The notes under the pieces: model-generated
Told to the model about the DNA's origin: nothing
Database searches by the model: none
Seen by the model: the letters and a program-made list of their open reading frames with translations, nothing else
Shown here: piece after piece, positions 19,529 through 37,845 of the stretch
Position numbering within the stretch: the first letter of the stretch is position 1
Layout: each line of letters starts with the position of its first letter
Source: an archaeon
GTDB taxonomy: Archaea; Iainarchaeota; Iainarchaeia; Iainarchaeales; 0-14-0-20-34-12
Reading direction: 5' to 3'
Assembly (NCBI GenBank): GCA_038046645.1
Contig: JBBSVU010000006.1
Location: 87,414-138,580 of the forward strand
DNA: 51,167 nucleotides
Position numbers and translations under genes: made by a program

Positions 19529-19599
19529 TGGGCCCACCCGGAGTCGAACCGAGCTCATCGCTACGTCAAAGCGATATCGTGCCGATGGACCATGAGCCC
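19529..19599 (-). tRNA. tRNA-Val(GAC)
   Basis: GGGCTCA/TGGGCCC acceptor stem, TCGCT-TTGACGT-AGCGA anticodon arm, TTCGACT T-loop; CCA not encoded. Confidence 0.93.
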
Positions 19600-19603
19600 C
19601 GCC

Positions 19604-19656
19604 TTCTCTTTCTTTTAGAAAAAGAAAGAGAATCTAGGTTGCCAAGAGAAAGAAAA
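19604..19656 (+). repeat. Inverted+mirror purine/pyrimidine (potential intrastrand triplex) element, copy A
   Basis: TTCTCTTTCTTTT / AAAAGAAAGAGAA / linker TCTAGGTTGCC / AAGAGAAAGAAAA. Confidence 0.8.
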
Positions 19657-19718
19657 CTAACTTTGGCAATATGATATTATTTTAGGCATCAGATTTAAAT
19701 AGGAAATTGTGTCAGAGT

Positions 19719-20687
19719 TTACTTCTTTATTCTAGCCAATTTCTCACAAACCTTGCAAATGTTCGTGCTTGCGGGTTCTCCGCATTGTTTGCATTGTTTC
19801 AATTTGAATTCAGAATAAACATCTTTTTGCAACATTCCCTTAATCCTTTCAAAAAAATTTATTGTGGAATATTTTGTTCCAGGATATGCTTTTTCCAACC
19901 TGTTTACTGTTTCCCTGTATTCATTCCTTTTTGCCTCATGGCTCAAAGGGCAGCATTCCCCCCCATAATATTTTATCCCAGCAAAGTTAGCAAATGCAAA
20001 CACTTCATTTTCAGGAATCTCATATAATGGCTTTACCCTAGGGATAAATTTTTCTGATTTGATAAATCCTGATTTTGCCCCTAACCTGATAAATAATTCT
20101 GGCTTATTATCACAAACATTCATCAATATGCTTTGGCATTCATCATCAAGGTTATGCCCAGTAACTAATTTGTCTGCCTTAATAGTTCTGGCATATTTGT
20201 TCATCAATTGCCTTCGCATAATTCCGCAGAAAGAGCAGGGATTTCCAATTGAAGAATCTTTCATTATTTTCTTTTGGATTTTTCCCATTGAAATGCCATA
20301 TTCCTCTTCAAATTTAATTACCTTATAATCAATGTTCCATACTTTGCAATTCTTTTTTGCAAATTCAATTGATTTATTCCTGTATCCTTTTATCCCCTCA
20401 TCAATCAACAGTGCTTTAATTTCACAGCTGTTTGAGAATATTTTATTTATCAAATATGCAGCTACTGAAGAATCCTTGCCGCCAGACATTGCCAATAAAA
20501 TCTTTTCTTTTGGCTTGATAAGTGAATATTTCCTTATGGTTTTCTTTACCCTTTTTTCAATAAGGTAAATAAAATGCATTTTGCAATAATGCTGCGGGCC
20601 GTAAAGAAGGCTTATTTCTGCCTTTTTTCCGCAGATTTCGCATTTTTTGCCTTCAATTACATTCCAATCTGTGGGTTTACAGCGCAT
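19719..20687 (-). CDS. tRNA 2-thiolation protein NcsA/TtuA (TIGR00269-like)
   Basis: N-terminal CxxC...CxxH, PP-loop SGGKDS, CSFC, TGHNLDD, C-terminal CxxC-x8-CxxC. Probable start ATG 20687. Confidence 0.9.
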   Translation of the reverse strand: MRCKPTDWNVIEGKKCEICGKKAEISLLYGPQHYCKMHFIYLIEKRVKKTIRKYSLIKPKEKILLAMSGGKDSSVAAYLINKIFSNSCEIKALLIDEGIKGYRNKSIEFAKKNCKVWNIDYKVIKFEEEYGISMGKIQKKIMKDSSIGNPCSFCGIMRRQLMNKYARTIKADKLVTGHNLDDECQSILMNVCDNKPELFIRLGAKSGFIKSEKFIPRVKPLYEIPENEVFAFANFAGIKYYGGECCPLSHEAKRNEYRETVNRLEKAYPGTKYSTINFFERIKGMLQKDVYSEFKLKQCKQCGEPASTNICKVCEKLARIKK

Positions 20688-20873
20688 AAAGAAACCTTTT
20701 AAAATACTGCACATGAGTATTTACTATTATAATAAAGGATATAAATATAAAAACAAAATGTAGTCCTTTACTATTTAGCAGAAGATAATAAAGTTTCAAA
20801 CTCAAAGTCTTTTGCTATAATATAAAGGTTAATTAAACACTATTTTGTTTATGTTTTTAATTGAGGGATTATT

Positions 20874-21473
20874 ATGAACGGATATAAGCACATCCAGGAG
20901 ACCTTGCAAAAGGAATATAGTGGGGCAAAAGAAGCTGGAATAGATTACAAAAAAATTATGAGGGATAAGTTATTCCAGTTTAGAAATCAGGAAGAATCTA
21001 TTACCAAAGTTGATAAACCAAGCAATATTCCAAGGGCAAGATCCTTGGGGTATAAGGCAAAGAATGGAGTAGTAGTTGTTAGGGCAAAGGTAAGAAAAGG
21101 TTCAGGAAAAATGCCTAGGCCAAGGGCTGCAAGAAGGCCCAAAAGAATGGGTACTAAAAAAAGAACAAGGGGAAAAAGCATACAAAGGATTGCAGAAGAA
21201 AGGGCAGCTAGAAAATACCCTAATTGTGAAGTTTTGAATAGTTATTTTGTTGGGCAGGATGGCAAGTGCAAATACTTTGAAATTATTTTAATTGATAGGG
21301 ATAATCCTGAGATGAGAGCAGATAAGGATTTAAGTTGGATTTGCGATAAAAGAGGTCGGGCTTTTAGAGGATTAACCTCTGCGGGAAAGAAAGGCCGGGG
21401 ATTAATGTACAAAGGAAAAGGCACAGAACAAGTAAGGCCTTCAGTAAATGCAAGTCACGGACACAGCAAATAA
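20874..21473 (+). CDS. rpl15e: 50S ribosomal protein L15e
   Basis: RARSLGYKAK, RRPKRMG, AEERAARKYPNCEVLNSY, RAFRGLTSAGKKGRGL. Confidence 0.97.
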   Translation: MNGYKHIQETLQKEYSGAKEAGIDYKKIMRDKLFQFRNQEESITKVDKPSNIPRARSLGYKAKNGVVVVRAKVRKGSGKMPRPRAARRPKRMGTKKRTRGKSIQRIAEERAARKYPNCEVLNSYFVGQDGKCKYFEIILIDRDNPEMRADKDLSWICDKRGRAFRGLTSAGKKGRGLMYKGKGTEQVRPSVNASHGHSK

Positions 21474-21535
21474 TTGCTGCTGTCTTTTTCTATTTTTAAT
21501 TATTTCATAATCAATTAGCTAATTGTTATTTCTTT

Positions 21536-22012
21536 TTATTTGCCCCTAGGTCTATTAATTCTAGGTTTTTTGGGTTTTGGTTTTGAAGCAAATTGCACAA
21601 AAGTCCCAAAAGGCAGTTCTTCAGTACGGGTTCTTTTTTTAATTTTTCTCATAACCGCCCTTAAAACTGGTTCAGCCCCATACGTAATGATCTGGTGATA
21701 TCCTAATTTAGCTGCGTGTTTTGTTAATTCTTTAATCAGCCCAAACATTATGCCGCGTTTTCTATGCTCTTCCCTTGTAAAATATCTTTTGCCCCTGAGT
21801 TCTTTCAAACCTTCATTTCTTTCAAATTCAATATACCCAATTGCTTTCCCCTTTTCAATAGCCAGCAAAAAAGATACCTGTGAAAGCCAGGGCTTTAATC
21901 TTTCTTCAGTTAACTCATACCAATGGTCTTCTTTCAGAATGTCCACAGCCATTTTTAATGCTTCCGGATTTTTTCCGGCAGAATTAGCATCAAGCACAAA
22001 ATATTTTGCCAT
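21536..22012 (-). CDS. GNAT-family acetyltransferase with basic C-terminal tail
   Basis: IGYIEF...FTREEHRKRGIMFGLI (motif A); tail KPKPKKPRINRPRGK. Confidence 0.7.
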   Translation of the reverse strand: MAKYFVLDANSAGKNPEALKMAVDILKEDHWYELTEERLKPWLSQVSFLLAIEKGKAIGYIEFERNEGLKELRGKRYFTREEHRKRGIMFGLIKELTKHAAKLGYHQIITYGAEPVLRAVMRKIKKRTRTEELPFGTFVQFASKPKPKKPRINRPRGK

Positions 22013-22063
22013 ATTTATTATTCCCCCAGTTTGTTTAAAATATCCTTCCTTCTAATTCTCATT

Positions 22064-22456
22064 ATGCGTTATATTTTTTCCCAAGATTTTACTTCAAGGG
22101 CAAGGGATTTGGCAAAGGAATTGGGTTTCAACCATATTGATTTAGAAAGAATTTCCTGCATTGTGAGCAGGGGCTCAAAAACAAGGAGAACAATTGCAAG
22201 AATCCATTCCTTAGGAAAGGCATTGCAAGAAGGGATGCAGACCCAGCCATATTATGTAATTGAGCTAATCTCAGAAAAATTCAATTCCCTGCCAGAAGAT
22301 GAAAAAACCAAAATCCTTATTCACGAATTGATGCATATTCCGCATTCTTTTGGCGGTGGCTTTAGGCACCATAAGCCCTATGTCACAAGAATAGCAGTTG
22401 ATGAAGTTTATCGGAATTACACTAATAATAAAACAAATAAAATCAGCTTATTTTGA
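22064..22456 (+). CDS. Putative zinc metallopeptidase (HExxH)
   Basis: SRGSKT, ARIH, YVIELISEKF, IHELMHIP...GGFRHH. Probable start ATG 22064. Confidence 0.85.
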   Translation: MRYIFSQDFTSRARDLAKELGFNHIDLERISCIVSRGSKTRRTIARIHSLGKALQEGMQTQPYYVIELISEKFNSLPEDEKTKILIHELMHIPHSFGGGFRHHKPYVTRIAVDEVYRNYTNNKTNKISLF

Positions 22457-22492
22457 ATTTATTTTATCCATATGGCGTTTAATATGCAAATT

Positions 22493-23866
22493 CTAATTAG
22501 ATTCTTTCTTGCCCTTCTTTTCAACAAGCAAATCAACAGCAATTCCCATTTCTTTGGCAAAGTTTTTCTCAAATCTGCTTAATTCATCAATCTTATTGTC
22601 AATTAGTTTTCTTCTTGCACCATATTCCTTCAATATGCCCCCAGTTTTCTTGTTCAAATCCTCAATACTTTTGTTGAACTTCTCTACATTTCGGTCAATC
22701 GTGCTCACAAATTGCTTTTGGAATACTGAAAGGTTCTCCTGTGCATTCTTTATCTCTTCAATCCTTGCTTCTTTCCTTATGTCTGCGACAAATTTCTTTT
22801 TGTAATTTTCCAAGTTATCAAGTATTGCCTGCTCGATAGTTTCTTCCAAAACCATTTTGTATGTCTCAAGTTCCTGTTTATCGCCTTCAAGCTGCTTTAT
22901 CTTAGCAGTTATCTTATCCACATCAATCTTTGCCCTTACCTCTTCAATCCTTTTAATTTCAAGTGAAACAGCATCAGTCAATTCCTGCCGTTTTTCATTC
23001 TGTATCTCAACAATTTTCTTTTCAGTGCTGTTAACCAAGCCTTCAACTACCTCACTTTCCAAGGAGAGCGTTCTTTCTACTCTTTGGTCTAGTTCCTGCA
23101 GATGTGATTCTATTTTTCCAACAGCCTCTTCTACCTCGCTTTTTGATTTAATTAATTCAGTATTCATATCCGCTAATATCCTATCCTTTACCTGCATTAG
23201 TTCTATTTTTTTTCGTTCTACATCATCTAAAATTTCTTTATGTTCCTGTTGCTTTAATTTAAGTTCCTCAATATTCCTTTTGATTTCAGTATTAAGATTG
23301 CCCATTTCAGTTATTTTGGAATTTATGATATCTTCGATTTCCTCAGATTTCATCGATAACTGTGAATTTACCTTTTCAATGAGCAGTGTTTTCTGTGATT
23401 CTGATACAACTGCCATCTTTTTCCTTTCTGATTCCACTGCTGCACTTACCTTTTCATCAAGTGTCTTTTCAATATCCTTCTTCAGTTTTTTCATTTCCTC
23501 TAATTTATCAGTAACAGTTACCAAAACACCCTTTTCCCATAGCCCTGAAATAGCCGGTTCAACATCCTTTGCATATTTTTCAAAAGAAAAAGCAGGTTTT
23601 GCCTGAATTGGCTGCTCTATCTTAGGTTCAATTGCACTTAATTCCTTTTCAATTACCTTGCTTAGGTTTACATTTGTTTTAACAGGTTCTTTTTCAGCAA
23701 TCTCTTCTAATGCTGTTTTTTTGAAACCACCGGCTTTTTTTATTAATTCCTTGGCTTCTTCATTACTCACGCCAATATCCTTTAGGTTAAGGATTATTTC
23801 GTCCTCTGAAACATTTAAGTCAATCAGCTTCTTTATTGAAGTTAGCATCAATTTTTCTCTGTCCAT
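22493..23866 (-). CDS. Long coiled-coil protein of unknown function
   Basis: 457 aa, E/K/L-rich heptads after a small helical N-domain and a Pro-containing linker. Confidence 0.75.
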   Translation of the reverse strand: MDREKLMLTSIKKLIDLNVSEDEIILNLKDIGVSNEEAKELIKKAGGFKKTALEEIAEKEPVKTNVNLSKVIEKELSAIEPKIEQPIQAKPAFSFEKYAKDVEPAISGLWEKGVLVTVTDKLEEMKKLKKDIEKTLDEKVSAAVESERKKMAVVSESQKTLLIEKVNSQLSMKSEEIEDIINSKITEMGNLNTEIKRNIEELKLKQQEHKEILDDVERKKIELMQVKDRILADMNTELIKSKSEVEEAVGKIESHLQELDQRVERTLSLESEVVEGLVNSTEKKIVEIQNEKRQELTDAVSLEIKRIEEVRAKIDVDKITAKIKQLEGDKQELETYKMVLEETIEQAILDNLENYKKKFVADIRKEARIEEIKNAQENLSVFQKQFVSTIDRNVEKFNKSIEDLNKKTGGILKEYGARRKLIDNKIDELSRFEKNFAKEMGIAVDLLVEKKGKKESN

Positions 23867-23992
23867 TTCAATCAGCCAATATTATATTTAACCTAATTTA
23901 ATTTTAATAGTATTCTTCCCACGTCTGCTATTTGCAATAATATAAATTGGAGCTTCTAATAAATGTTTGTTTTTGCCAGAAATAGTATTATA

Positions 23993-24050
23993 TTCTTTTT
24001 CTTTTGATGCCTAGGAACTTTTATTTTTCTTCTTAAGAAAAAGAAAAGTT
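23993..24050 (-). repeat. Potential intrastrand triplex element, copy B
   Basis: Minus strand: AACTTTTCTTTTTCTT / AAGAAAAATAAAAGTT / CCTAGGCATC / AAAAGAAAAAGAA; 5 nt downstream of tRNA-Ala. Confidence 0.75.
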
Positions 24051-24055
24051 GCTAT

Positions 24056-24150
24056 TGGACTGGTCGGGATTCGAACCCGAGGCCTCCACAATCGTGTTGA
24101 AGTTAAACCCCATTGCCAATGTGGCGATCTACCAACTGATCTACCAGCCC
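24056..24150 (-). tRNA. tRNA-Ala(GGC) with 22-nt intron at position 37/38 (24092-24113)
   Basis: GGGCTGG/CCAGTCC acceptor stem with G3:U70, CCACA-TTGGCA^T-TGTGG anticodon arm, TTCGAAT T-loop; 73 nt after splicing. Confidence 0.92.
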
Positions 24151-24156
24151 TTTACC

Positions 24157-24176
24157 GTAAGCTAAGTATAGCTTAC
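24157..24176. promoter_or_regulatory. Palindrome GTAAGCTA-AGTA-TAGCTTAC just upstream of tRNA-Ala
   Basis: Perfect 8-bp inverted repeat; function inferred (operator, or terminator of the lsm transcript). Confidence 0.4.
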
Positions 24177-24214
24177 AATAATATTTGCAGAAAATAAAGG
24201 ATGTTTAATTTTCA

Positions 24215-24433
24215 TTAAACATTAATGAATACGATTGAATCTCCTCTTATGAGCATCTCGCTGTTCTTGCTCTTTACCTGTCCTTCCTCTAATTCTTCAG
24301 CTTCTCCTAAAACAATATTAAGATGCACATCAAATCCTTTTAATACACCTCTTACCTGTTTTCCTCCTTTTAGCTGAAGAAGGACATTCTGCCCTATCCT
24401 CTTTGTTAATACATCGAATGGTTTTACTGTCAT
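24215..24433 (-). CDS. Sm-like archaeal protein (Lsm/SmAP)
   Basis: KPFDVL, GVLKGFDVHLNIVL, LIRGDSIVFI. ATG 24433 follows a GTGAGG SD. Confidence 0.93.
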   Translation of the reverse strand: MTVKPFDVLTKRIGQNVLLQLKGGKQVRGVLKGFDVHLNIVLGEAEELEEGQVKSKNSEMLIRGDSIVFINV

Positions 24434-24462
24434 TTCCCTCACCCTTAAAAAATAAAAACAGT

Positions 24463-25242
24463 TTATTTTCTAAATATCACTCTTAGGATTCTCTTAATAA
24501 AGCTTTCTTTGTGCGTTTCAACACTAACTTCCCCACCTAGCAGTTTTATTGCAATGGTTTCAATTGCTTTTGATGCAGGGCAGTTAGGGCATCTTATTAC
24601 AACAGGAACGCCTTTTTTATCATAGAATGACCTTCGCACTTCTTGGTCATAGGGGATTACGCCATAACAGGGCAATTCCAAAGTTTGCATTATCTCTTCT
24701 TTTTCTAATTCCCCCTTTTCATTCCTTAGCATATTTATTATTACACCAATTGCATGCCCGCCCAATTTTTCCGTAATTATTTTTGTTTTCAAGCCATCAG
24801 CCAAGCTTGCTGGAGTAGCTTCTGTTATTAAAAGTACGGCATCAGAACTGGTTAAGGCTGATAATACTGCACGTTCAATCCCTGCAGCTGCATCAATCAG
24901 GATAAAATCATAATTTTCTTTTATTGTGGAAATTACAGATCTCAATCGTTCAGAATCTATCTTCCTGTAACTCTCCAAGCTTAAACCTGAAGGCAATATT
25001 TCAATGCCATTCGGCCCTTCATACAATGCATCCTGTATCGAGGTTTCACCCAATAAAACATCATGTAAGGTAATTGGGGATGTTTGCATCCCAAGAAGTA
25101 AGGATAGATTAGCCATCGCAATGTCTGCATCCACAAGCAGCACTTTCTTGCCCTGCCTTGCCAGGCAAATTCCTAAGTTAGCTGTAAGCGTAGTTTTCCC
25201 AGTTCCGCCTTTTCCAGAAGCAATTGTAATTACTTTACCCAT
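24463..25242 (-). CDS. minD: MinD/ParA-family ATPase (archaeal MinD)
   Basis: IASGKGGTGKTT, VDADIAMANL, IDAAAG, GVIPYD. Confidence 0.9.
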   Translation of the reverse strand: MGKVITIASGKGGTGKTTLTANLGICLARQGKKVLLVDADIAMANLSLLLGMQTSPITLHDVLLGETSIQDALYEGPNGIEILPSGLSLESYRKIDSERLRSVISTIKENYDFILIDAAAGIERAVLSALTSSDAVLLITEATPASLADGLKTKIITEKLGGHAIGVIINMLRNEKGELEKEEIMQTLELPCYGVIPYDQEVRRSFYDKKGVPVVIRCPNCPASKAIETIAIKLLGGEVSVETHKESFIKRILRVIFRK

Positions 25243-25294
25243 ATCCTTCAGTATCTATTATAAAACAAGATAATATAAATTTTAGTTTTTTTAA

Positions 25295-25783
25295 TTAACC
25301 CTTATCTATGCCTAATAGCCCCATTTTTTTCATTATATCATAACGTGATTTCTCATCTGATTCCTTTATCCCTTTTTCTGAATATTGGGTTGAATATGCC
25401 TTGGGGATTAATTTTGCTAAATCTTTTAATTGATATCCCTTTACTTTCATCACATCCTTAAAAGTAATAGTTAGTTCAACCTGCTGTTTTGAAAGTGAAT
25501 TTATATCAAGAACGCCGTATTTTGCCTTGAATGCATTTAATATTCGTACAAGAGCTTCCTCACCTTCAATGCTATGGTTTGAAGTATCATAAGAGAACAA
25601 GGCTCCAACAATAATTCCCTTTTGGAATAATAATAAGCCTTCTTCTATTCCAGCATAGCCGTAAATAGTAAGTACAATATACCCTGAAAATTCACTATCC
25701 ATAAAACTTTTGAATAATTCTTCAGGATTCACCTTATTTATATTAAGCCCTTCCTCAATCTTTTCTCCTGCTGGAAATTCCAT
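25295..25783 (-). CDS. DUF2226-like protein
   Basis: MEFPAG, FSGYIVLTI...EEGLLLF..G.IVGA, C-terminal SRYDIMKKMGL; upstream of minD. Confidence 0.7.
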   Translation of the reverse strand: MEFPAGEKIEEGLNINKVNPEELFKSFMDSEFSGYIVLTIYGYAGIEEGLLLFQKGIIVGALFSYDTSNHSIEGEEALVRILNAFKAKYGVLDINSLSKQQVELTITFKDVMKVKGYQLKDLAKLIPKAYSTQYSEKGIKESDEKSRYDIMKKMGLLGIDKG

Positions 25784-25852
25784 ATTATTATTAAACACCC
25801 CATCTATTTAAATTTGCTTTTTGGCAGCATAAGATAATAAAAGCGTGATTAA

Positions 25853-26131
25853 TTGCAATTAGATAATTTTATCTCAAAGCTATGCAGGGGAGGGGACAGT
25901 TTTGAATTCCTACCAAAAACTAAAGTATCATTAAACCTTGCAGAACTTTCAAAAAAACTTTCTGAAAACGGCTTTGGCATAAAGGCAGAAACTAAATTAG
26001 TAATATTAGTAAATTATTCGGGCACAAACATAAGCATCTTCCAGGATGGCAAAATCCTTGTTAAAGAAGTAAAGGAAGAATCCAAAGCAAGGGAATTAGC
26101 CTTGCTTATCCTTGCTAGAATTAATGCCTGA
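25853..26131 (+). CDS. Small protein resembling the C-terminal accessory domain of some ThiF/MoeB proteins
   Basis: LCRGG, LNLAELSKKL, ISIFQDGKILVK, A-x-ELA; TTG start. Confidence 0.55.
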   Translation: MQLDNFISKLCRGGDSFEFLPKTKVSLNLAELSKKLSENGFGIKAETKLVILVNYSGTNISIFQDGKILVKEVKEESKARELALLILARINA

Positions 26132-26202
26132 ACCCTCTTCAAAAGGTTTAAATAGTTTGAAAGCCTATTTTTCTCAACAAACAACCGTTTGGAGGTGTTG
26201 GT

Positions 26203-26874
26203 TTGGTAGATTTTGTTTTAGGGCTAAAAAAGCCGTTTCAAGATATTAAAACACTAGTTATCGGAATTATTTTAGGTATGATTCCTTTCATAAGTTCACT
26301 TACAATTCCGGGATTTGGGTTAAAGGTAGCTGAAAAAACCCTTAAGGGCGACAATAAGCTTCCTGATTTCCTTGAGAATATTGGGGATTTAATCATTAAA
26401 TCCGTTTTATCGATAATTATAGGCCTGATTTATTTGATTCCGGCATTGCTCGTGCTTGTTGTCTCAATTGTGCTTTTTGCTTCAAGCCTATTAGGAAGCT
26501 TTACCGGATTATTAACTGGAGGCAATGTTGACTTTACTGCACTCATGGCAGCTTTAGGACCTTTTTTAGGTTATATGCTTGTAGTGATACTTTTGTTCTT
26601 AATTGCAGTATTCCTGCTGCCCTCAGCATTAGTTAATTACGTTGCATCAAATAAATTTTCTGCAGCATTCTCTTTTGGCACGGTAATTAAGAAAGCATTA
26701 ACCTTGAAGTATTTCATAGCCTGGATCTTTACAGTAATCCTTTACTTTGTTTTAGCATTCATTGTAGGGTTGCTTTCACTCATTCCGGTTGCAGGAACTC
26801 TACTAGGCACAGGGTTAATGATGTATTCATTGAATGTAATGGAATACACTTGGTTTGCAGAAGCCTGCAAATAA
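26203..26874 (+). CDS. DUF4013-like membrane protein
   Basis: KKPF, GF..KV...LPDF, IYLIP, AAFSF; GGAGGTG SD before TTG. Confidence 0.8.
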   Translation: MVDFVLGLKKPFQDIKTLVIGIILGMIPFISSLTIPGFGLKVAEKTLKGDNKLPDFLENIGDLIIKSVLSIIIGLIYLIPALLVLVVSIVLFASSLLGSFTGLLTGGNVDFTALMAALGPFLGYMLVVILLFLIAVFLLPSALVNYVASNKFSAAFSFGTVIKKALTLKYFIAWIFTVILYFVLAFIVGLLSLIPVAGTLLGTGLMMYSLNVMEYTWFAEACK

Positions 26875-26891
26875 AGTGATGCATAAAATAG

Positions 26892-26928
26892 CAGCGTGTT
26901 ATTAACACGCTGTTTCTTATTCTTTTTT
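26892..26928 (+). terminator. Hairpin plus T-rich tract
   Basis: CAGCGTGTT-ATT-AACACGCTG followed by TTTCTTATTCTTTTTT. Confidence 0.55.
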
Positions 26929-26952
26929 AATTACATATTCACTGATTGAATT

Positions 26953-28047
26953 ATGAAATCACTTTTTTTAGGCAAGATTTTTGGCATTGAATTGGAATTG
27001 CACTGGACATTCCTTTTAGTAATGGCATTTGTAATAATTTCACAGGCATTATTTTATCCGCAGACATTCCTTCCTGTTGTTTTTATTTTCTTTATACTTT
27101 TCCTTTCAGTATTCCTGCATGAATTATGCCATTCTGTTGTTTCCCTAAGCAAGCACATAAAAGTGAAGAAGATTATGCTATTGCCAATTGGAGGCGTAGC
27201 CTTAAGTGAACGGATGCCTGAGAAGCCAAAGGATGAATTCCTTATTGCGATTGCCGGGCCCTTATTTAATTTCTTGGTTGTTTCTGTGCTATTTGCTTTA
27301 ATAATTATTTTCAATCTGCCATTCCCATGGGAACTTTTCAATGACCCAAAAAATATGGTGAATTTTGAATCCTACCTTATTCAATTTCCCCTGTTTGCAG
27401 TTCTTTGGGTGAATTTTATGCTGGGTGCATTTAACTTATTCCTTCCAGCTTTGCCTCTTGATGGCGGCCGTGTTTTTAGGTCATTGTTAGCTTTAAAATT
27501 TGATTATGTTAAAGCTACGCGTTTAGCTACAAAAGTAAGTACCATATTTGCGTTTTTGCTTTTCTTCCTTGGATTTTTCAGTGGAAGCATTATGCTTACA
27601 ATAATTGCAGCATTGATTTATTTAGGGTCAAACCAGGAATATCAGTTAGTATCCTTGAAACATGCATTTAGCCACATAAATCTTTCTCATTTAATAAAGA
27701 AAAAGCCTTTTGTGATTGGTGAAACAAAAACCTTGAAAGAGGCAAAGGAATTTATGCTAAAAAAGAATGTCACTTCTTTGTTAGTAAAAAGAAAACTTGG
27801 TTTTGGCTTGATTTCATCAGAGGATATTGTAAAACAAAATGCAAATATGGGATTGCCAATTTCAAATTATCTGACTGAACTCCCAATTATTTCTGCAACA
27901 TCTACCAGCTCTGAATTAATGGAGAAATTTTATACAACCGGGCTTCCATTCCTGCCAATTGTGCATAATTCAAAACTGCTCGGGGTAATCGAAGCATCGT
28001 CGCTTGAAAAATTGCAGAAATTGCATGCACTTGAGCGCCTGAAATAA
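26953..28047 (+). CDS. Site-2 protease (M50) with CBS-like C-terminal domains
   Basis: LHELCH, LPIGGVA, AIAGP, FNLFLPALPLDGGR. Confidence 0.93.
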   Translation: MKSLFLGKIFGIELELHWTFLLVMAFVIISQALFYPQTFLPVVFIFFILFLSVFLHELCHSVVSLSKHIKVKKIMLLPIGGVALSERMPEKPKDEFLIAIAGPLFNFLVVSVLFALIIIFNLPFPWELFNDPKNMVNFESYLIQFPLFAVLWVNFMLGAFNLFLPALPLDGGRVFRSLLALKFDYVKATRLATKVSTIFAFLLFFLGFFSGSIMLTIIAALIYLGSNQEYQLVSLKHAFSHINLSHLIKKKPFVIGETKTLKEAKEFMLKKNVTSLLVKRKLGFGLISSEDIVKQNANMGLPISNYLTELPIISATSTSSELMEKFYTTGLPFLPIVHNSKLLGVIEASSLEKLQKLHALERLK

Positions 28048-28088
28048 GCCAAAATCTATTTTTAATACCTCTTTGTTAAACTTTTATT

Positions 28089-28176
28089 GCTGGGATCGGA
28101 TAATCCGGTATTCCGCCAGTTTCGAAAACTGGTGTGCTTCTCGCACATGTGGGTTCAAATCCCACTCCCAGCGCCA
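28089..28176 (+). tRNA. tRNA-Ser(CGA)
   Basis: GCTGGGA/TCCCAGC acceptor stem, CCAGT-TTCGAAA-ACTGG anticodon arm, long variable arm, G73, encoded CCA. Confidence 0.95.
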
Positions 28177-28179
28177 ATC

Positions 28180-28239
28180 CTTTCTTTTCTTTTCCTAAAC
28201 GAAAAGAAAGCCTTAGGCATATTCCAAAGAAAAGAAAAA
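28180..28239 (+). repeat. Potential intrastrand triplex element, copy C
   Basis: CTTTCTTTTCTTTT / GAAAAGAAAG / CCTTAGGCATATTCC / AAAGAAAAGAAAA; 3 nt after the tRNA-Ser CCA. Confidence 0.7.
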
Positions 28240-28291
28240 CTACTATTGTAACAAAAACATATTTAATCCCATTTCCTTATTTCTCTATATT

Positions 28292-28900
28292 ATGATCCCA
28301 ATTGTGCAGATGTTTTCGGATTTTTTAATCTCATTAATTTCAAGCTGGGGTTATTTATCCATTATTGTTCTGATGGCAATGGAATCAGCAAATCTGCCAA
28401 TCCCTAGTGAAATAGTAATGCCATTTGCTGGTTACTTGGTTTATTTGGGGAAATTGGATTTCGTAATGGTTGCCTTGGCAGGAACTTTAGGAAATTTAAT
28501 CGGCTCAATCCTTTCATATTGGGGCGGAGCCTATGTTGGTAGGGCAGTACTTCTAAAATATGGAAAATATGCCCTAATTTCTGAAAAGAAACTGAATTGG
28601 GCAGATTCATGGTTTGCGAAATATGGGCATAAAGCAGTTTTTATTTCAAGGATGCTGCCTGTAATAAGAACCTTTATTTCAACGCCTGCTGGAGTAACAA
28701 GAATGGATTTCAAGAAATTTGTCCTTTACACAACGTTAGGCTCTTTACCTTGGAATTTTGCTTTAGCTTATTTGGGCATTTATTTGGGCCCAAACTGGAA
28801 CTCAATGATAAATTTCTTCCATATGTTTGATGTAATTATCGTATTCTTGATAGTAGCATTCACAATTTGGTACTGGAAGAAAATAAATTCGCACAATTAG
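28292..28900 (+). CDS. DedA family membrane protein
   Basis: MESANLPIPSEIVMPFAG, SRMLPVIRTFISTPAG. Confidence 0.93.
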   Translation: MIPIVQMFSDFLISLISSWGYLSIIVLMAMESANLPIPSEIVMPFAGYLVYLGKLDFVMVALAGTLGNLIGSILSYWGGAYVGRAVLLKYGKYALISEKKLNWADSWFAKYGHKAVFISRMLPVIRTFISTPAGVTRMDFKKFVLYTTLGSLPWNFALAYLGIYLGPNWNSMINFFHMFDVIIVFLIVAFTIWYWKKINSHN

Positions 28901-28960
28901 TTTCTGTGTGCTTAATGATAAAGAGCAAATCAATTATCCTTAGTGGTGATGCCCTATTTG

Positions 28961-30181
28961 CTAAGATCCATTAAAGGACAATAACCATTTCCAAACAGGT
29001 TTTATGAGTATTTTTTTGTTTTGTATTTCAATCATGTCTTCTTGATCATATGTTAAAATTAATCCTTGTTTCAATTTAAATTTAGCCAGCACTTCCACTA
29101 ATCCATTAATTTCTCGTTCATTATTGTCTTCATTGAGTTCATAACAAACCTGAATTGCTTGGGTTATTTTTCCTTTCTCTTTTATTATAAAGTCACATTC
29201 GTTTTTTTCTTTGAAATAAAATAGTTCTTTATATTTTCTTCTTAAATGCAAAAAAACTTGGTTTTCCAACATCCTTCCTCGGTCTTTTGAAAAAGAAATT
29301 GAATTTGCTAACGATAAACCATTGTCAATTGAATAAATCTTTTTTGGGTTAACCTGCTGTTCTTTATAGGAATAACTAAATTTTGGAATAGTAAATAATA
29401 AGTAAGAGTCCTCAAAAAATGAAATATAGTCAATAATGCTTTGGACAGAGGCAACTGAAAACATTTTCTTTAAGGAATTAAATGAAAATTCCTTTCCGAC
29501 ATTACTAATCAAATAAACTGCCAATTTCTTTAATAGGTCTGAATTCCTAATGCTAAACCTGACAGCAACATCCCTTATTACGACATCTTTTAATAATTCC
29601 TGTAAAACAAAATTTTGTTTTCTTTCAAGATATTCCGGAAAACCCCCCAATCTAAAATATTTTTCGAAAGAATCAATTGAGGGGGCAAAATTAAAGTAAT
29701 CCAAAAATTCTTTAAAAGAAAAAGGAAATAATTCGTAACTCAAATGCCTGCCAGTCAAAAGTGTTCCGAGTTCTTTGCTTAAAAGAGAAGCATTAGAACC
29801 GGTTAAAACTACCTTCTTTTTTTTATCCACAAGAGAACGCACAAATTTTTCCCATTTAGGGACAACTTGAATTTCATCAAAAAAATAAATGCCATTCCCC
29901 CCATATAATGCATTAAAAATTTCATCTAATTTAACAAAATCAGATAATTCAAAATCATCCAAACGGACATCTTCTAGGTTAATATAATAAAAATTTTTCT
30001 CTTTCTTCAAAAGCTGCCTCAAAAGAGTGCTTTTACCGCAACGCCTTATGCCGGAGATGACCTTGACAAAAGAAGGAACAGGCTTAACTAAAGGAAGATC
30101 TTCCCTAATGACTGTCTTTTCATTCAAAGCCAATTCTTTTTTTTGGGTAACAATTATTTTTTCTAATTTTTCTTTAAGCAT
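28961..30181 (-). CDS. AAA_14 / DUF4143-type ATPase
   Basis: GIRRCGKS, FFDEIQ, TGSNASLLS, LTGR, GGFPE, KIYSIDNG, ENQV...ECDF...IQV nuclease-like tail. Confidence 0.9.
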   Translation of the reverse strand: MLKEKLEKIIVTQKKELALNEKTVIREDLPLVKPVPSFVKVISGIRRCGKSTLLRQLLKKEKNFYYINLEDVRLDDFELSDFVKLDEIFNALYGGNGIYFFDEIQVVPKWEKFVRSLVDKKKKVVLTGSNASLLSKELGTLLTGRHLSYELFPFSFKEFLDYFNFAPSIDSFEKYFRLGGFPEYLERKQNFVLQELLKDVVIRDVAVRFSIRNSDLLKKLAVYLISNVGKEFSFNSLKKMFSVASVQSIIDYISFFEDSYLLFTIPKFSYSYKEQQVNPKKIYSIDNGLSLANSISFSKDRGRMLENQVFLHLRRKYKELFYFKEKNECDFIIKEKGKITQAIQVCYELNEDNNEREINGLVEVLAKFKLKQGLILTYDQEDMIEIQNKKILIKPVWKWLLSFNGS

Positions 30182-30214
30182 ATAAATACAAACAAGCTAA
30201 GCATTTTTAAATCA

Positions 30215-30254
30215 TTCTATTAGTAATAGAAAGAAGCTTCTATTAGTAGTAGAA
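30215..30254. promoter_or_regulatory. Tandem palindromic operator-like sites
   Basis: TTCTATTAGTAATAGAA (30215-30231) and TTCTATTAGTAGTAGAA (30238-30254), just upstream of the TTTAAAAA box of the ATPase gene. Confidence 0.55.
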
Positions 30255-30266
30255 ACAATGCTTAAC

Positions 30267-30685
30267 CTAAAGCTTCTTTACCTTGTTATGGTATCGTAAC
30301 AAATCCCAAAAATCGTATCCAACACAAGCAACATACAGTAAGAGGAGTAAGATATCTAGAATTAAAAAAGGTCCAATAATCATACTAATCAGTACTTGTG
30401 AGACCATAATGGAAAAACCAATAATCAGCAGCAGTAAGCCAGTTGTAATATGTCCCAAAATTCTTTCTAAGGGATTGGCAAAGTTTGTTTTTTCATAAGT
30501 AAATGCAAAACAGCCAAAGCAGGCAATTACTGAAATTAAAGAAGAAAAAGTTAACATTGCAGAGATGCTGGAAATATCAGTAATTTCGCTGTTTATTAAT
30601 TGGCTTTTGAGGGGGAGTATAACATTACTAAAATAATTAGTATAAGACTGTTTTTCAAAATGTTTTCCTTTATTAGCTTGTTCAT
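30267..30685 (-). pseudogene. Membrane protein gene with a 1-nt frameshift in a C5 tract
   Basis: ATG 30685 frame (MNKLIKENILKNSLILIILVMLYSP) stops shortly after the tract at 30611-30615. One extra C joins it to the 30267-30557 ORF, giving 139 aa. Confidence 0.65.
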
Positions 30686-30722
30686 AATATACCTATAGAT
30701 AACTGCTTAATAAAGATTTCTT

Positions 30723-32867
30723 CTAGAAAATCTTATATCTTCCACCGCAATATTTCACAATCAGTTCGCAAGCTTCCTTCAATTTCTCTTCAAGTAGCTT
30801 ATCGTTTGTTTTCAAATTTCCCTGAACTTCCAAGACAGCATTTTTAGTATTCTTTGTTATTTTGGATTCATCATCCTGCCGTACATCCATCCGGCACAAA
30901 ACATTTCCTAAAGAATCAGTGATTGCATATTCCCCTTTTTTAGCAATAGCTTTTTCCTTTGCACCCATTGGAATAAATTCCTTGTCATCTTTCAAAATAA
31001 CAAATTCCAAATCTCCTTTTAATTTGTCCAAATCATGCGCCCCGATTGTCAAGCCTGAATCAACGCTCACCACATTGTAAGCGTCAACAAAGGTATTTAT
31101 TGTAGGCAATTTCCCTGCTCTTTTAATCATGCCGAGCAAACGTTCAGCAGGGGTTAATTCATTTTTGAATTCAGCAGTTCTCTGTGCCTTATAAGCATTG
31201 ACAATTTCATTATTTTCAAATGTTTTTTCCTTTGCTTTCTTCTCAAATTCTTCTTTAAATTTTTCAAGCTGATTATTTTTGCTTTTTATCTCTAAATTTG
31301 TGAGAATAGCATGCTTGCTTTTTATTCCAAGCTTTTTTGCCTCTTCACTTATTGAAAAGTTAATCTCTTTTTTGGTCTCCTCTGCTTTATATTCAACTTT
31401 TTTAAACAAAATTTCTGTTTTCCTGATTAAAGTTCCTGATTTTAAAAGCCCAAACTTGCAATCATTTAAATTTCCAGCAGTAATCCCTAATTGTTTATTT
31501 ATTCTTTCAGAGGTTTCTGGCATAAATGAGGAAAGCAGTATTGAAATTATCCTCAAGGAATCCGCTAATACATATAAAACATTTTCCAATTCCTTGCCTT
31601 TTAATTTCCAGGGCTCTTTTTCATTTACATATGCATTGGCTGAATTAACAATGCCCATAATTTGCTGCAAAGCCAAATGCAGTTCATATTTTTCCATATA
31701 TTTTTTTATTTTTTCAATCTCTATTTCATTCTTTTCTGCAAACTGCAGGTCAATATTCGCATTTGGGATTTTTCCATTGCAGTATCTTTCAACCATTGTT
31801 AACGTTCTTTGCAGCAAATTGCCCAAATCATTGGCTAATTCATCATTCACATGCTTGCAGAGCAATTTCTCAGAAAAATAACCGTCTTCGCCAAAAGGAA
31901 TCTCCCTAGTCAAGTAATATCTTAAATTATCTGCCCCATACTTATCAGCCAATTTAAGGGGATCAATTACATTGCCTAGTGATTTGCTCATTTTTTCGCC
32001 AGAATCTGTTTTTATAAATCCATGGACAAAAACAGTTTTTGGCAGTTCAATATTAGCTGCCATTAAAATGCTCCACCATATTACTGTATGGTGCCACAAA
32101 ATATCCTTTCCTATCAAGTGAACATCAGCAGGCCAGAATTTCTTGAATCTTGCAGAAGGATAATCAATTCCTGAAATATAATTCAGCAAGGCATCATACC
32201 AAACATAGATTGAATGTTTTGAATTAATTGGCAAGGGAATGCCCCATTCTAAATTAGCCCTTGATACTGATAAATCTAATAATCCTTCCTGCATCCTGTT
32301 AAGAATCTCTTTTTTCCTGTGTTCTGGCAGGACAGTTGCCTCCGTTGCAAAATATTCCCTCAATTTCTTTTCATATTTGCCCATTTTAAAGAAATAGCTT
32401 TCTTCCTTCAATACTTCACATTTTTTTCCGTGTGTAGGGCAGTTCCCATTTGCCAATTCTTTTTCAGTATAAAATGTTTCGCAATCAGTGCAATAATGCC
32501 CTTCATATTTTCCCAAATAAATGTCGCCTTTATCATATACCTTCTTGAATATTTCTTGGCACATTTGCATATGCTCTTTTTCAGTTGTCCTTATGAAGCG
32601 GTCATTTGAGATATTCAATTTTTTGCATAATTCTAAGAATGCCTTGCTTTGGTAATCCACAAATTCCTTTGGTTTCATCCCTTTTTTTTCTGCAGCTTTT
32701 TGTATCTTCCTTCCGTGTTCATCTGTACCGGTAAGGAAGAATACATCTTTACCAAGCAGGCGATGCCATCTTGCGATAACATCTGCGCATATTTTCTCAT
32801 ATGCATGCCCAAGATGCGGGTCTGAACTGGGATAATCTATTGCAGTTGTAATGTAAAATTTATTCAT
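30723..32867 (-). CDS. metG: Methionyl-tRNA synthetase with C-terminal B3/4-like domain
   Basis: HLGH, DEHG, single Zn knuckle, YVWYDAL, KMSKS, anticodon domain LANDLGNL. C-terminal ~210 aa carry PTINTFVDAYN...GAHDLD. Confidence 0.95.
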   Translation of the reverse strand: MNKFYITTAIDYPSSDPHLGHAYEKICADVIARWHRLLGKDVFFLTGTDEHGRKIQKAAEKKGMKPKEFVDYQSKAFLELCKKLNISNDRFIRTTEKEHMQMCQEIFKKVYDKGDIYLGKYEGHYCTDCETFYTEKELANGNCPTHGKKCEVLKEESYFFKMGKYEKKLREYFATEATVLPEHRKKEILNRMQEGLLDLSVSRANLEWGIPLPINSKHSIYVWYDALLNYISGIDYPSARFKKFWPADVHLIGKDILWHHTVIWWSILMAANIELPKTVFVHGFIKTDSGEKMSKSLGNVIDPLKLADKYGADNLRYYLTREIPFGEDGYFSEKLLCKHVNDELANDLGNLLQRTLTMVERYCNGKIPNANIDLQFAEKNEIEIEKIKKYMEKYELHLALQQIMGIVNSANAYVNEKEPWKLKGKELENVLYVLADSLRIISILLSSFMPETSERINKQLGITAGNLNDCKFGLLKSGTLIRKTEILFKKVEYKAEETKKEINFSISEEAKKLGIKSKHAILTNLEIKSKNNQLEKFKEEFEKKAKEKTFENNEIVNAYKAQRTAEFKNELTPAERLLGMIKRAGKLPTINTFVDAYNVVSVDSGLTIGAHDLDKLKGDLEFVILKDDKEFIPMGAKEKAIAKKGEYAITDSLGNVLCRMDVRQDDESKITKNTKNAVLEVQGNLKTNDKLLEEKLKEACELIVKYCGGRYKIF

Positions 32868-32954
32868 ACTCCTATTACTTCAGTTTAAGAACTACTTTTA
32901 ATATTTGCCTTTGCTCTCTATTCAATTTTTAAACATTTTAATGCAAGGTTAAGT

Positions 32955-33854
32955 ATGCCAAAACCAAGGAGATCTGCAAGGCAGGGGCGCGTTAGTTATG
33001 TAGGCAGAGAGGTAACTGTTGGAGGAAAGCCACTTAGTTTATCTGATTATAGAAAGCGTTTAATTGCACAAAGCAAATGGCTTGGGAATGCAAGAAAAAC
33101 AAGGGAAGTGCTTGAAGAGCAATTAAGGCAGTTTGAAAAGCTTGAAGAAGTGCTTGGTTTATTGAGAACTGGGTTATCCCCTGGGGAAGTAGCTAGGGAA
33201 ACTGGTTTAGCGCCGAATACCGTGAGAAGATGGCATAGGGGAGAAAATCTTCCACAATACCTGTCAGAAAGGTTTTTTGCCCAAAAAAAGAAGGAGCGCA
33301 AGCCAATATTTATTCCAAAACCCTCTGCCAATGATACAGACTTTGCTTATGTTTTAGGGGCAATGTGCGGCAATGCATCAGTAAAAAGGGAAACCCCCTT
33401 AATATTTCTAAGAGCTAAAGATAGGGCATTTGTTGAAGCATTTAAGGATAAATTATCTAAATTTGTGCCAATCAAGGGAACAATAACCAAAAAAACAGAT
33501 TTGTGGGAATTTTCCGTTAAATCAGCATCTGCAGCACAAGAGTTTAACAGATTGACTGCCTATGGTAAGAAACCTCCTTTGGCCTATCTTAGGGTTTCTG
33601 GCACAAAAAGAGCATTTGCAAGAGCATTATTTGATAGCCATGGATATATGAGTAGAAAAGCAGGCACAGATAGGGCAAGGGTGCTGTTTTCAAAATCAAA
33701 CCCTAGGATTTTAAATTTTATAAAAGAAGTTTTAACGCAAGAAGGCATACATTTTTCGAATTTTAGCTCTAAGGGGGTTGCAGGGATTGCAATTGACAAC
33801 CAAAGAGCTATCCTTAAATTCTTTGAGCGAATAGGCTTTACAAAAGAATTATGA
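32955..33854 (+). CDS. Free-standing HTH + degenerate LAGLIDADG-like protein
   Basis: HTH LSPGEVARETGLAPNTVRRW; motifs FAYVLGAMCGNAS and FARALFDSHG; C-terminal FFERIGF. Confidence 0.8.
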   Translation: MPKPRRSARQGRVSYVGREVTVGGKPLSLSDYRKRLIAQSKWLGNARKTREVLEEQLRQFEKLEEVLGLLRTGLSPGEVARETGLAPNTVRRWHRGENLPQYLSERFFAQKKKERKPIFIPKPSANDTDFAYVLGAMCGNASVKRETPLIFLRAKDRAFVEAFKDKLSKFVPIKGTITKKTDLWEFSVKSASAAQEFNRLTAYGKKPPLAYLRVSGTKRAFARALFDSHGYMSRKAGTDRARVLFSKSNPRILNFIKEVLTQEGIHFSNFSSKGVAGIAIDNQRAILKFFERIGFTKEL

Positions 33855-34038
33855 TTCAGTTTCCTAATCCACATAGCTATTGCTTAGTTTGGAAACTGAA
33901 TTGATTATTAATAATAAATTAAGTGCTCTATTATATCTACAATATTTTTTTAGAGCCCAACACTCTTTCTCCCGACACACACTTTTAACATACACAACTA
34001 AGCGGGTGAATAGGTTAGTTTTTTTATAAATTAGAGTA

Positions 34039-34097
34039 TTTCTCTTTTCTTTCGGCAACTTACACTTTCTTTTCTCTTTAAGAAAGAGAAAAGAAAG
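34039..34097 (-). repeat. Potential intrastrand triplex element, copy D (perfect 15-mer)
   Basis: Minus strand: CTTTCTTTTCTCTTT / AAAGAGAAAAGAAAG / TGTAAGTTGCC / GAAAGAAAAGAGAAA. Confidence 0.85.
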
Positions 34098-34167
34098 GGC
34101 AGTTCAGGGGAAATCTACTCTCCCAATCCGCTTTTAAACCAAAGAAAACAGTATTTAGGAGATATAT

Positions 34168-37100: not shown

Positions 37101-37845
37101 AGATTTGCCCCCCACATTAATCTCAAGGTTTGATTTATTCTTCTTAATTAAAGACGTGCTTGATAAAAAGAAAGATTTGGAAATTGCAACCCATATCCTA
37201 AAAACACACCAAGGTGGGGAGAAAATCCAGCAGCAAAAAATCCTCGGGAAAAAAATCTCAAAAGAGGACTGGAAGGAAATCGAAGAAAGGATTACACCGC
37301 CAATTCCAACTGAATTAGTGAAAAAATATATTTCTTATGGGAGGCAGAATATTTTTCCAGTTCTTTCAAAACAGGCAATCGCCCTAATTTCAGATTTCTA
37401 TGTTGGATTGCGTGAGAAAGGAAAGCAGGATGGAAATTACGCCGCCACCCACAGGCAATTGGAAGGTTTAATCAGGTTAAGCGAAGCATCAGCAAGGGTA
37501 AGGCTAGCTGATGCTGTTGAGATAGAAGATGCCCAGAGAGCCATTCGCTTGTTTGAATATTGCCTTGAAGGCACAGTAAAAGATCCGGAAACCGGAAAGA
37601 TTGACATTGATATTTTAACAAGCGGAAAGTCACATTCACAAACAGAATCCATAAAAAAGATTCTTAGGATAATAAAAGAGAAATCTGCTGAATTGGATGA
37701 AATTACTATTGAGGACATAATGAAAGAGGCGGAAGCACAGGGCATTGACAGAGATAGGGCAAAGGATTACATGGAAGATTTGCACAAGAAAGGGGATATC
37801 TATTATCCTAGGCATAATATTGTAAAGCCTGCCTCAAGGCAGTAA
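34168..37845 (+). CDS. mcm: Replicative helicase MCM (697 aa extein + 528 aa intein)
   Basis: Zn finger CRRC...CDC, Walker A GEPGVAKS, Walker B IDELDKM, SRFD arginine finger, RQLEGLIRLSEA, C-terminal winged helix. Confidence 0.97.
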   Translation: MAEQTLPERNPQLGKFLSFYEQEYKKQIEHLVKKYPEERSLNVDFKELERFDFELADELLESPDDLIKSAESAIESVEVPSLQVEKFAPHIRFFNLPDDRKILLRNLGSAHLNKLICVEGVIKQITDVLPKLKKAAWQCRRCGNVYKVDQDSPELKKPAFCDCRHRDFSLVEAESEFVDYQKILIQESLESLKGNEQPTDIQVYMSDDIVNKVSAGDKIKIVGILRLGPLNKEKAAFTRYLEVRHLDRVEREFEDIVISEEEEAGIKQLAKDPQVFDKLIKSLAPGIYGHEMVKEAIMLQLFGGVKKVMPNEQKIRGNIHVLLVGEPGVAKSQMLLAANALSPKGIYIAGKTSTGAGISATAVKDEFGEGGWTIKAGALVLASGGVAFIDELDKMDAEDRSAMHESLEQQSYHKDFEIMLADGSKHKIGKLVDSLIENNLQRVIQGKNCEILEVDDLQVLTADFNNLSPITVSRVSRHRAPDHFVKITYSTGRSIIVTPEHPIFVFENNNFVEKSASLLTKGMFCPAAKKIEIIPRNQSLLTDVSVNGRKELFLPEQMNPNIGAFLGYVASEGHSYFDESNSYAEIGISNTDPIIINHMTAVFKDSFKSYLNINSIKAGNRAKATKDITTVRCCSLPLYNYFKNNFNELIAKAPFKRIPARILSANQEIQAEFLKAAFSGDGFIDSERFGFSTASLSMAEDYADLLLQFSIISRIQTEERKEHKYYKVVISGTNSLKKFLQFVPETDKRLGRLNYFIKRSSARLNEEDFIPNCILCELNALLKSLKLSDGSFVLSINKNYSAERKRVIKHLDKVYAKIKFLKSLDCESPRKIRKLFNLPLGEVANSLGISKSMVTYIERNLRTKQVSRLLLTVKKLASDKLLDLDVKCSKIKSVVDSDLRFVTIAKTEIIPNVGSEWVYDVTVEPTRNFISSGLVLHNSISVAKAGITTRFKTETSVLAASNPKYSRFDPYSPYLEQIDLPPTLISRFDLFFLIKDVLDKKKDLEIATHILKTHQGGEKIQQQKILGKKISKEDWKEIEERITPPIPTELVKKYISYGRQNIFPVLSKQAIALISDFYVGLREKGKQDGNYAATHRQLEGLIRLSEASARVRLADAVEIEDAQRAIRLFEYCLEGTVKDPETGKIDIDILTSGKSHSQTESIKKILRIIKEKSAELDEITIEDIMKEAEAQGIDRDRAKDYMEDLHKKGDIYYPRHNIVKPASRQ
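35398..36981 (+). mobile_element. Intein with LAGLIDADG homing endonuclease in MCM
   Basis: Inserted at EQQ|SISVAKAG. Starts SYHKDFEIMLADG; block B TPEHP; FLGYVASEG and FLKAAFSGDG motifs; ends VYDVTV...LVLHN followed by Ser+1. Confidence 0.95.

Follow-up and report, generated by a model that had tools for sequence, protein, structure and literature searches.

The 51,167-nt stretch of DNA from a small groundwater archaeon analyzed here (hereafter the window; contig JBBSVU010000006.1 of an Iainarchaeota genome, positions 87,414–138,580) contains four copies, A to D, of a dispersed non-coding repeat of about 60 nt, with long forms of up to about 200 nt, whose working form would be a fold of single-stranded DNA. 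The explanation that we favor, and for which belief and doubt are in our view evenly balanced, is that of a single-stranded-DNA triplex repeat copied between gene edges by host recombination and repair. One strand carries, in order, a spacer, a pyrimidine tract, a 3-nt loop, the complementary purine tract, a linker and a mirror purine tract. The first two tracts would form a hairpin, which the spacer and the first half of the linker would extend, and the last tract would return antiparallel in the major groove as in a class II, purine-motif triplex. Such a fold may arise on unwound DNA and stall polymerases; host repair would then copy or swap copies between sites, and trim or duplicate sequence at the pyrimidine end (the head) until constrained sequence stops the process. 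Head-side trimming halted in this manner would account for heads that adjoin edges as unrelated as exon ends, intron junctions, start and stop codons and a promoter motif. Transfer RNA loci would gather most copies, being recombination targets from whose introns copies are removed by splicing, and for the latter reason the repeat would build and lengthen tRNA introns; some copies would later be held by selection on the fold. Geometry, copy-by-copy covariation, a lower stem, edge polarity and turnover between congeners are documented by the comparisons described below.

A scan of the window for a pyrimidine tract followed by its reverse complement and a mirror tract returns four matches, which are exactly A to D, compared with an average of 0 over 60 block shuffles and 0.07 (maximum 1) over 60 shuffles that preserve the purine/pyrimidine pattern. 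The four motifs thus lie where the original prediction, made from the letters of the window, had placed them, and the excess of mirror symmetry over composition-matched shuffles on which it had staked its case is seen. All four members of the family it described are real, but they are only 4 of the 44 copies that a strict scan finds in the 1.17-Mb genome, and its scope included neither the genome-wide family nor the intron copies, the orientation rule or the lower stem. A perfect mirror is present in 34 of the 44 copies, among which 30 distinct third tracts occur, and identical copies are found at distant sites; the reversed geometry, searched genome-wide, gives none. The strict scan requires the mirror, hence the test was repeated on hairpins alone. 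Of the strand views offered by this set of 53 hairpins, 47 have a distinct purine tract farther downstream, and the third tract agrees with the mirror of its own hairpin at an identity of 0.865, against a mean of 0.746 and a maximum of 0.786 for permuted partners; none of 20,000 permutations attains the observed value, although, the copies being related, 47 views are not 47 independent events. A direct repeat in place of the mirror reaches 0.78, as against 0.865, in the same set. Comparisons later than this permutation test were made by eye from printouts and were not scripted.

The pyrimidine tract, complementary purine tract and reverse-Hoogsteen third tract of the ITxF class II definition are all present on one strand. 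The loops depart from the ITxF setting, in which both are 1–6 nt long (PMC4666352, as far as its available text goes): the second loop measures 11–16 nt in the window and more than 60 nt in the long forms. Rfam returns only tRNA matches in the window and in 14 element-bearing loci, and the repeat matches no described RNA family. No published description of the family was found in the literature searched, which left subscription papers mostly uncovered, and the supplementary tables of PMC4666352 might list such motifs. The repeat family is, on this evidence, real, widespread and apparently unpublished.

Folding predictions suggest a stem between the 5′ spacer and the first half of the linker. 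Among 18 copies of the linker family of A and D, hand-picked from two genomes with the lower stem not a selection criterion, this stem starts with a C-G pair in all 18 rows, followed by C-G in 15, T-A in two and G-C in one, by a bulged invariant A, and by G-T in 14, A-T in three and G-C in one; none of these pairs is broken. Farther out, the pairs are C-G in 11 and T-A in five with two broken, and the outermost is broken in nine. A second linker family of twelve copies contributes three further covarying pairs. At eight variable triad positions the three tracts agree in every one of 144 cells, and 31 double changes are counted, figures that are partly circular in that 12 own-genome rows came from the scan demanding a mirror. 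Selection on three-stranded geometry over sequence, as the original prediction had proposed, finds support in this covariation of lower stem and triads and in the tracking of each hairpin by its own third tract. Furthermore, G-T counts as a pair only when the pyrimidine-purine-mirror strand is the one that folds, and it is kept by four of six leader copies, where that strand is not transcribed, which argues that the same folded strand is favored irrespective of transcription.

Long forms carry 2–4 extra hairpins in the linker, and their mirror is perfect over 14–16 nt, as would be expected of a single strand; linker-plus-tail units are also repeated in tandem. We infer that a fold of one unwound strand would suit this anatomy better than H-DNA in duplex. 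A TAG/TAA core, common in the linker, is variable and lies 3′ of the hairpin. Two other pairing schemes were discarded: self-folding of the linker is weaker than spacer-linker pairing and is attained by 21 of 500 shuffles, and pairing between the copies of one intron is at odds with the differing patterns within the tRNA-Arg intron pair and within the tRNA-Trp intron pair. A second set of A/T-rich hairpin modules with 3-nt junctions, varying in order and number, occupies the linkers of long copies (L060, L061, L063).

The placement of the repeat is strictly polar. Of all 44 copies, 29 lie 2–13 nt (median 6) from an exon edge predicted by ARAGORN, 11 of them downstream of the tRNA, 8 upstream and 10 in introns; 20 share the strand of the tRNA and 9 have the opposite one, and the head faces the exon in each of the 29 copies within 15 nt. 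These copies involve 25 of the 43 predicted tRNA genes, some intron calls being possibly misassigned. With two further copies that stand tail to tail within a tRNA-Arg(CCT) intron overlooked by ARAGORN, 31 of 44 copies lie at tRNA exon edges (12 intron, 11 downstream, 8 upstream), all head-first and 10 of them on the opposite strand. The enrichment at tRNA genes suspected by the original prediction therefore holds genome-wide, over distances of 2–13 nt. Among the remaining 13 copies, two follow repeated or left-over tRNA 3′ ends, three lie 7 nt after a stop codon, two precede a start codon of the opposite strand by 6–7 nt (the second start was read by eye), four, including D, adjoin an 18-nt promoter motif, and two have an unresolved edge. 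Altogether, 42 of 44 copies point away from an edge of constrained sequence, and the edges have no sequence in common.

Several of these loci merit description in their own right. The tRNA-Arg(CCT) gene (L057:330-555; G000:C14), with its long intron and two tail-to-tail copies, is overlooked by both ARAGORN and Rfam, so the tRNA sets of these archaea are probably under-annotated. At tRNA-Leu(TAG) (L058:342-690) the 3′ end is repeated twice more among hairpins, with a triplex copy after the last repeat, and the extra 3′ ends are likewise found in the congeneric genome G001. A tRNA-Arg(GCG) gene (L058:130-240; G000:C1) has apparently been replaced by a different tRNA copy; the old 3′-end remnant and its triplex copy persist 41 nt downstream, and G001 retains the old gene. 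The 18-nt motif, separate from the triplex repeat yet a docking edge for it, occurs 21 times in the genome, 14 times in G001 and in none of 3 more distant genomes, about 10 nt upstream of TATA-like boxes. It precedes mcm, radA and genes for a HerA-type ATPase, a LAGLIDADG-like protein and an unassigned 87-aa protein (L031, L033, L037, L049 and the window), and likely marks a DNA repair and replication regulon, judging from these genes. Presumably it also resembles archaeal origin-recognition boxes.

Comparison with relatives points to turnover. The congener represented by L001, a record of Candidatus Diapherotrites (Iainarchaeota), and the host have ribosomal L15e proteins that are 93% identical. 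Twenty orthologous sites with a copy in either genome were compared, with L001 used for A to C and G001 otherwise, and unmatchable edges omitted. The tracts are identical at three sites (Val, Glu and Arg) despite divergent loop and flanks; one site retains the stem with a new linker; two changed in step within a linker family, including a tRNA-Gln(CTG) triad with T>C, A>G and A>G; at seven, C and D among them, the two genomes have different copies; at five, only one genome has a copy; at one, a new copy has come to lie between the old one and the exon; and at one, the site of copy B, the copy has decayed. Furthermore, tRNA-Pro(CGG) has a 107-nt element-bearing intron in the host, and in G001 lacks the intron and has a leader copy instead. 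What these sites describe is turnover at fixed positions together with selection in place.

A looser class pattern, in which complementarity is unchecked and some matches are spurious, matches 75 of 121 genomes of the phylum, whereas a reversed control gives 11 matches in 8 genomes. None of 7 genomes from outside the order matches, and of 24 genomes belonging to a second phylum 5 do, one with the linker of copy D. For G003 and G032, which belong to other families, 20 regions around listed matches were inspected (one spurious-looking G003 match was omitted, and the G032 list was used in part), and 19 of 20 sites are head-first, 17 at a tRNA exon, one at RNase P RNA and one at a sequence resembling a C/D-box RNA, as assigned by Rfam and by eye. 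Within 1.7 kb of G003, a cluster of copies occupies the introns of three tRNAs, two trailers and a further place left unassigned. In the same genome, at least three tandem 42-nt hairpin-containing repeats, unlike the triplex repeat, directly follow 5S rRNA (L098:1617-1740).

In the window, copy A (19599..19656, + strand) lies within the leader of tRNA-Val(GAC) (19529..19599, − strand), on the strand opposite to the gene and with its head 4 nt from the 5′ end; its parts are spacer 19599–19603, pyrimidine tract 19604–19616, loop, purine tract 19620–19632, linker 19633–19643 and mirror tract 19644–19656. Copy B (23993..24055, − strand; spacer 24055–24048, pyrimidine tract 24047–24035, purine tract 24031–24019, linker 24018–24006, mirror tract 24005–23993) is downstream of tRNA-Ala(GGC) (24056..24150, − strand), on the same strand, and it is this copy that has decayed in L001. 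Copy C (28177..28238, + strand; spacer, pyrimidine tract 28181–28193, purine tract 28197–28209, linker 28210–28225, mirror tract 28226–28238) follows tRNA-Ser(CGA) (28089..28176, + strand), whose last bases are predicted to pair with its linker; L001 holds a differently patterned copy here. Copy D (34039..34102, − strand; spacer 34102–34098, pyrimidine tract 34097–34083, purine tract 34079–34065, linker 34064–34054, mirror tract 34053–34039) adjoins with its head the 18-nt motif (34103..34120, + strand), 11 nt upstream of the TATA-like box (34132–34138) of the mcm helicase gene with intein (34168..37845, + strand), and G001 has a long A-type copy at this site.

Hairpin and mirror are both perfect over 13 nt in A and over 15 nt in D, as predicted; B and C have 13-nt tracts with a perfect mirror and one hairpin mismatch in the purine tract. 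The predicted 9/11 match between the A and D linkers and the distance of 70 nt from D to the mcm start were likewise correct. Linkers of 10–15 nt had been given, which agrees with A, B and D (11, 13 and 11 nt), C exceeding the range by one at 16 nt. Gaps of 3–5 nt to the tRNAs fit the upstream copy at Val and the downstream copy at Ser (4 nt each) and not the downstream copy at Ala (8 nt); the predicted 3–5 nt depend on the chosen start of the pyrimidine tract. Contigs from public runs cover A, B and C without differences (X5 covers A and B, X10 covers A and C); none of those listed covers D, at whose site a congener has an element. A free-standing LAGLIDADG-like open reading frame (32955–33854, + strand) ends 185 nt before copy D. 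The tRNA-Ala(GGC) gene carries a 22-nt insert (24113–24092, − strand) after the anticodon, at the canonical intron position; it is intron-like, bears no likeness to the triplex repeat, and is absent in L001.

A number of observations weigh against copying of a single-stranded triplex repeat by host repair. The triplex itself is predicted from sequence geometry, and polymerase stalling and head-side trimming are steps that we infer. Footprinting of the E. coli analogue in vivo lent no support to a stable triplex, nor was any effect seen in vivo, whereas in vitro the bacterial analogues block DNA polymerase, and they mark unstable loci (PMC4666352, available text). Besides the partial circularity of the triad counts, kinship between copies makes the covariation counts overstate the number of independent events, and the G-T pair may be inherited. 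The strict scan finds no copy at 18 of the 43 predicted tRNA genes, and 5S rRNA flanks have no copy in any of five genomes. At the 3′ end of RNase P RNA, a head-facing copy is present in two of four genomes and none in one, and the copy in G001 faces this end with its tail. Conservation of the linker across families could mean protein recognition, and selection in place, as shown by the four of 20 sites with retained tracts and the two that changed in step, may mean host function over selfish copying. A more far-reaching version, in which a protein-less self-propagating micro-element, selected as a single-stranded DNA triple helix, is copied by host repair to gene edges and anticodon loops and generates DPANN tRNA introns, as the first prokaryotic triplex with triads shown by natural covariation, is put forward only tentatively.

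An element acting at the RNA level is the best of the rival explanations, and we consider it unlikely. Leader copies would cap the RNA upstream of the RNase P cut as a pyrimidine-motif triplex, and downstream copies would be U-tract terminators or nuclease blocks. Leader-copy transcripts do read U-rich tract, stem-loop, U-rich tract, A-rich tract and tRNA, and the topology of copy A fits the description of MALAT1 in the accessible part of PMC6379651; copies sit where stable RNAs end, RNase P RNA and a sequence resembling a C/D-box RNA among them, and three are placed 7 nt past stop codons. The early exclusion of RNA from purine-motif triplexes is, moreover, said not to be general (PMC7515735, in the text available). 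However, the pyrimidine motif would be in the transcript for only 10 of 31 tRNA copies, about a third, and the ENE/MALAT1 order (U-rich, U-rich, A-rich, 5′ of the RNase P site) is found on the transcript for 8 leader copies including A and not for 21 same-strand copies. A given subfamily can occur in either orientation with mirrors of the same quality, G-T would become A-C in leader transcripts, U-tracts in introns and leaders would risk premature termination, copy D lies upstream of a promoter, and the two copies of an intron pair differ from one another. A plain terminator or RNA-end role, ventured by the original prediction, is thus a poor fit as a general explanation in view of leader copies, intron copies and the 10 of 31 tRNA copies on the opposite strand, and the G-T wobble, which keeps the same folded strand whichever strand is transcribed, also disfavors it.

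Strict polarity on both strands, the identical tracts at the Val, Glu and Arg sites where loop and flanks diverge, and a linker whose conservation extends across families and to a second phylum would be in agreement with a DNA landmark selected by the host. A protein bound to the fold or linker would act as a polar barrier or insulator, or the repeat would keep integrases and homing nucleases away from tRNA genes; viral integration has been proposed to be blocked by tRNA introns (PMC4090602, accessible part). We regard this as quite improbable, since 46 of 121 genomes of the phylum are without a match and counts vary widely, single sites gain and lose copies, flank copies leave the attachment site uninterrupted, and no binding protein was identified.

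The turnover that speaks against a landmark could reflect a non-autonomous REP/MITE-like mobile element, for which a transposase or reverse transcriptase provided in trans would perform the insertion at structured single-stranded targets, an explanation that we hold to be very doubtful. It would account for gains, swaps and stacking at orthologous sites, for identical copies at distant sites and for modular hairpin arrays that resemble REP mosaics. A Y1 transposase is, however, found in 6 of 22 genomes and a reverse transcriptase in 3 of 22; neither is found in the host genome (89% complete) or in most element-rich genomes, one of them a single-contig genome, and neither tracks the element or its copy number, which favors host repair and recombination as the mover. 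Neither a shared target sequence nor a regular target duplication is seen, and viral contigs gave no match to two exact element patterns, a weak test as the patterns are narrow. The tiny mobile repeat suggested in the original prediction is therefore borne out as regards swaps, gains and losses between congeners, but not by any tracking enzyme, and some copies are conserved in place. There is next to no chance that the repeat is a by-product, A/T-rich hairpins in low-complexity spacers with a mirror arising by chance or slippage: the tracts are of low complexity, swapped partners already have an identity of 0.74–0.87 and hairpin arms can be homogenised through template switching, yet shuffles (about 0.07 matches per window), the reversed geometry (0 versus 44) and permutation (0 of 20,000) largely refute it, the tRNA-Gln(CTG) triad changed in a coordinated manner, and a mirror repeat cannot, to our knowledge, be made by template copying.

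Copying of a single-stranded triplex repeat by host repair invites comparison with several known systems. REP and BIME sequences with their RAYT transposase are short extragenic palindromes that form module mosaics and turn over rapidly, like the archaeal repeat, and REP/RAYT or IS200/IS605 elements have an invariant tetranucleotide beside a conserved hairpin. The archaeal repeat differs from REP and BIME by its mirror third tract and variable stem sequences, and by having no co-occurring Y1 transposase. With the MALAT1 ENE triple helix and its downstream tRNA-like domain, the leader copies share the order U-rich, stem-loop, U-rich, A-rich and RNase P-cut tRNA, but MALAT1 is eukaryotic, single-copy and RNA-strand specific (PMC6379651, as described in its available portion), whereas two thirds of the archaeal tRNA copies are oppositely oriented.

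As regards introns, the transposed tRNA introns of Thermoproteales (Fujishima et al. 2010, as summarized in PMC4090602) and the repeatedly gained tRNA introns of Asgard archaea (bioRxiv 10.64898/2026.10.13.758758) have two features in common with the archaeal repeat: introns of unrelated tRNA genes contain related sequences, and close relatives differ by gain and loss of introns. In the archaeal repeat the shared unit is a triplex module that is found outside tRNA genes as well and in both orientations. In the available text of these two sources the arrival of archaeal tRNA introns is stated to be open and its mechanism undetermined, and that of the bioRxiv report contains no occurrence of triplex, hairpin or DPANN. 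Long canonical introns are filled by the repeat, whose occurrence varies between congeners along with that of the intron, and it would thereby offer a concrete and testable route for the growth of archaeal tRNA introns.

Among triplex-forming sequences, the motif of Methanomicrobiaceae is likewise archaeal, intergenic and repetitive, combines a hairpin with an antiparallel purine third strand, and has been folded in vitro; it differs in being G/C-rich, with a 5′-side third strand, a competing quadruplex and no tRNA link in the text available (PMC8044849). The role of triplexes in prokaryotes is called unresolved in a 2026 review (PMC13463272, accessible part). A third tract that follows its own hairpin through dozens of variants and inserted hairpins offers comparative evidence for selection on triads, and natural copies provide wild-type, mismatch and compensated oligonucleotides for direct tests of the triplex. 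Closest are the bacterial PIT, BoxC and TM(ECO) elements (Holder et al. 2015, PMC4666352, in its available text), and the likeness to bacterial intrastrand triplex elements drawn in the original prediction is supported: both have the order pyrimidine, purine, reverse-Hoogsteen purine, and both are intergenic and multi-copy, with no strand bias, tail-to-tail or inverted pairs and local rearrangement. In TM(ECO), a 37-mer that is G/C-rich and nearly invariant, the stems are conserved, the loops vary, and there is neither a trend in gene distance nor a preference for a gene class; the word tRNA does not occur in that text. The archaeal repeat, by contrast, has A/T-rich stems that vary by copy, a conserved linker of 11–16 nt or longer and a lower stem, and its heads keep a fixed distance to tRNA exons and to the edges of other genes. 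The repeat thus resembles the class II intrastrand triplex motif, and yet stands outside the TM/PIT/BoxC sequence family by composition, linker, lower stem and placement.

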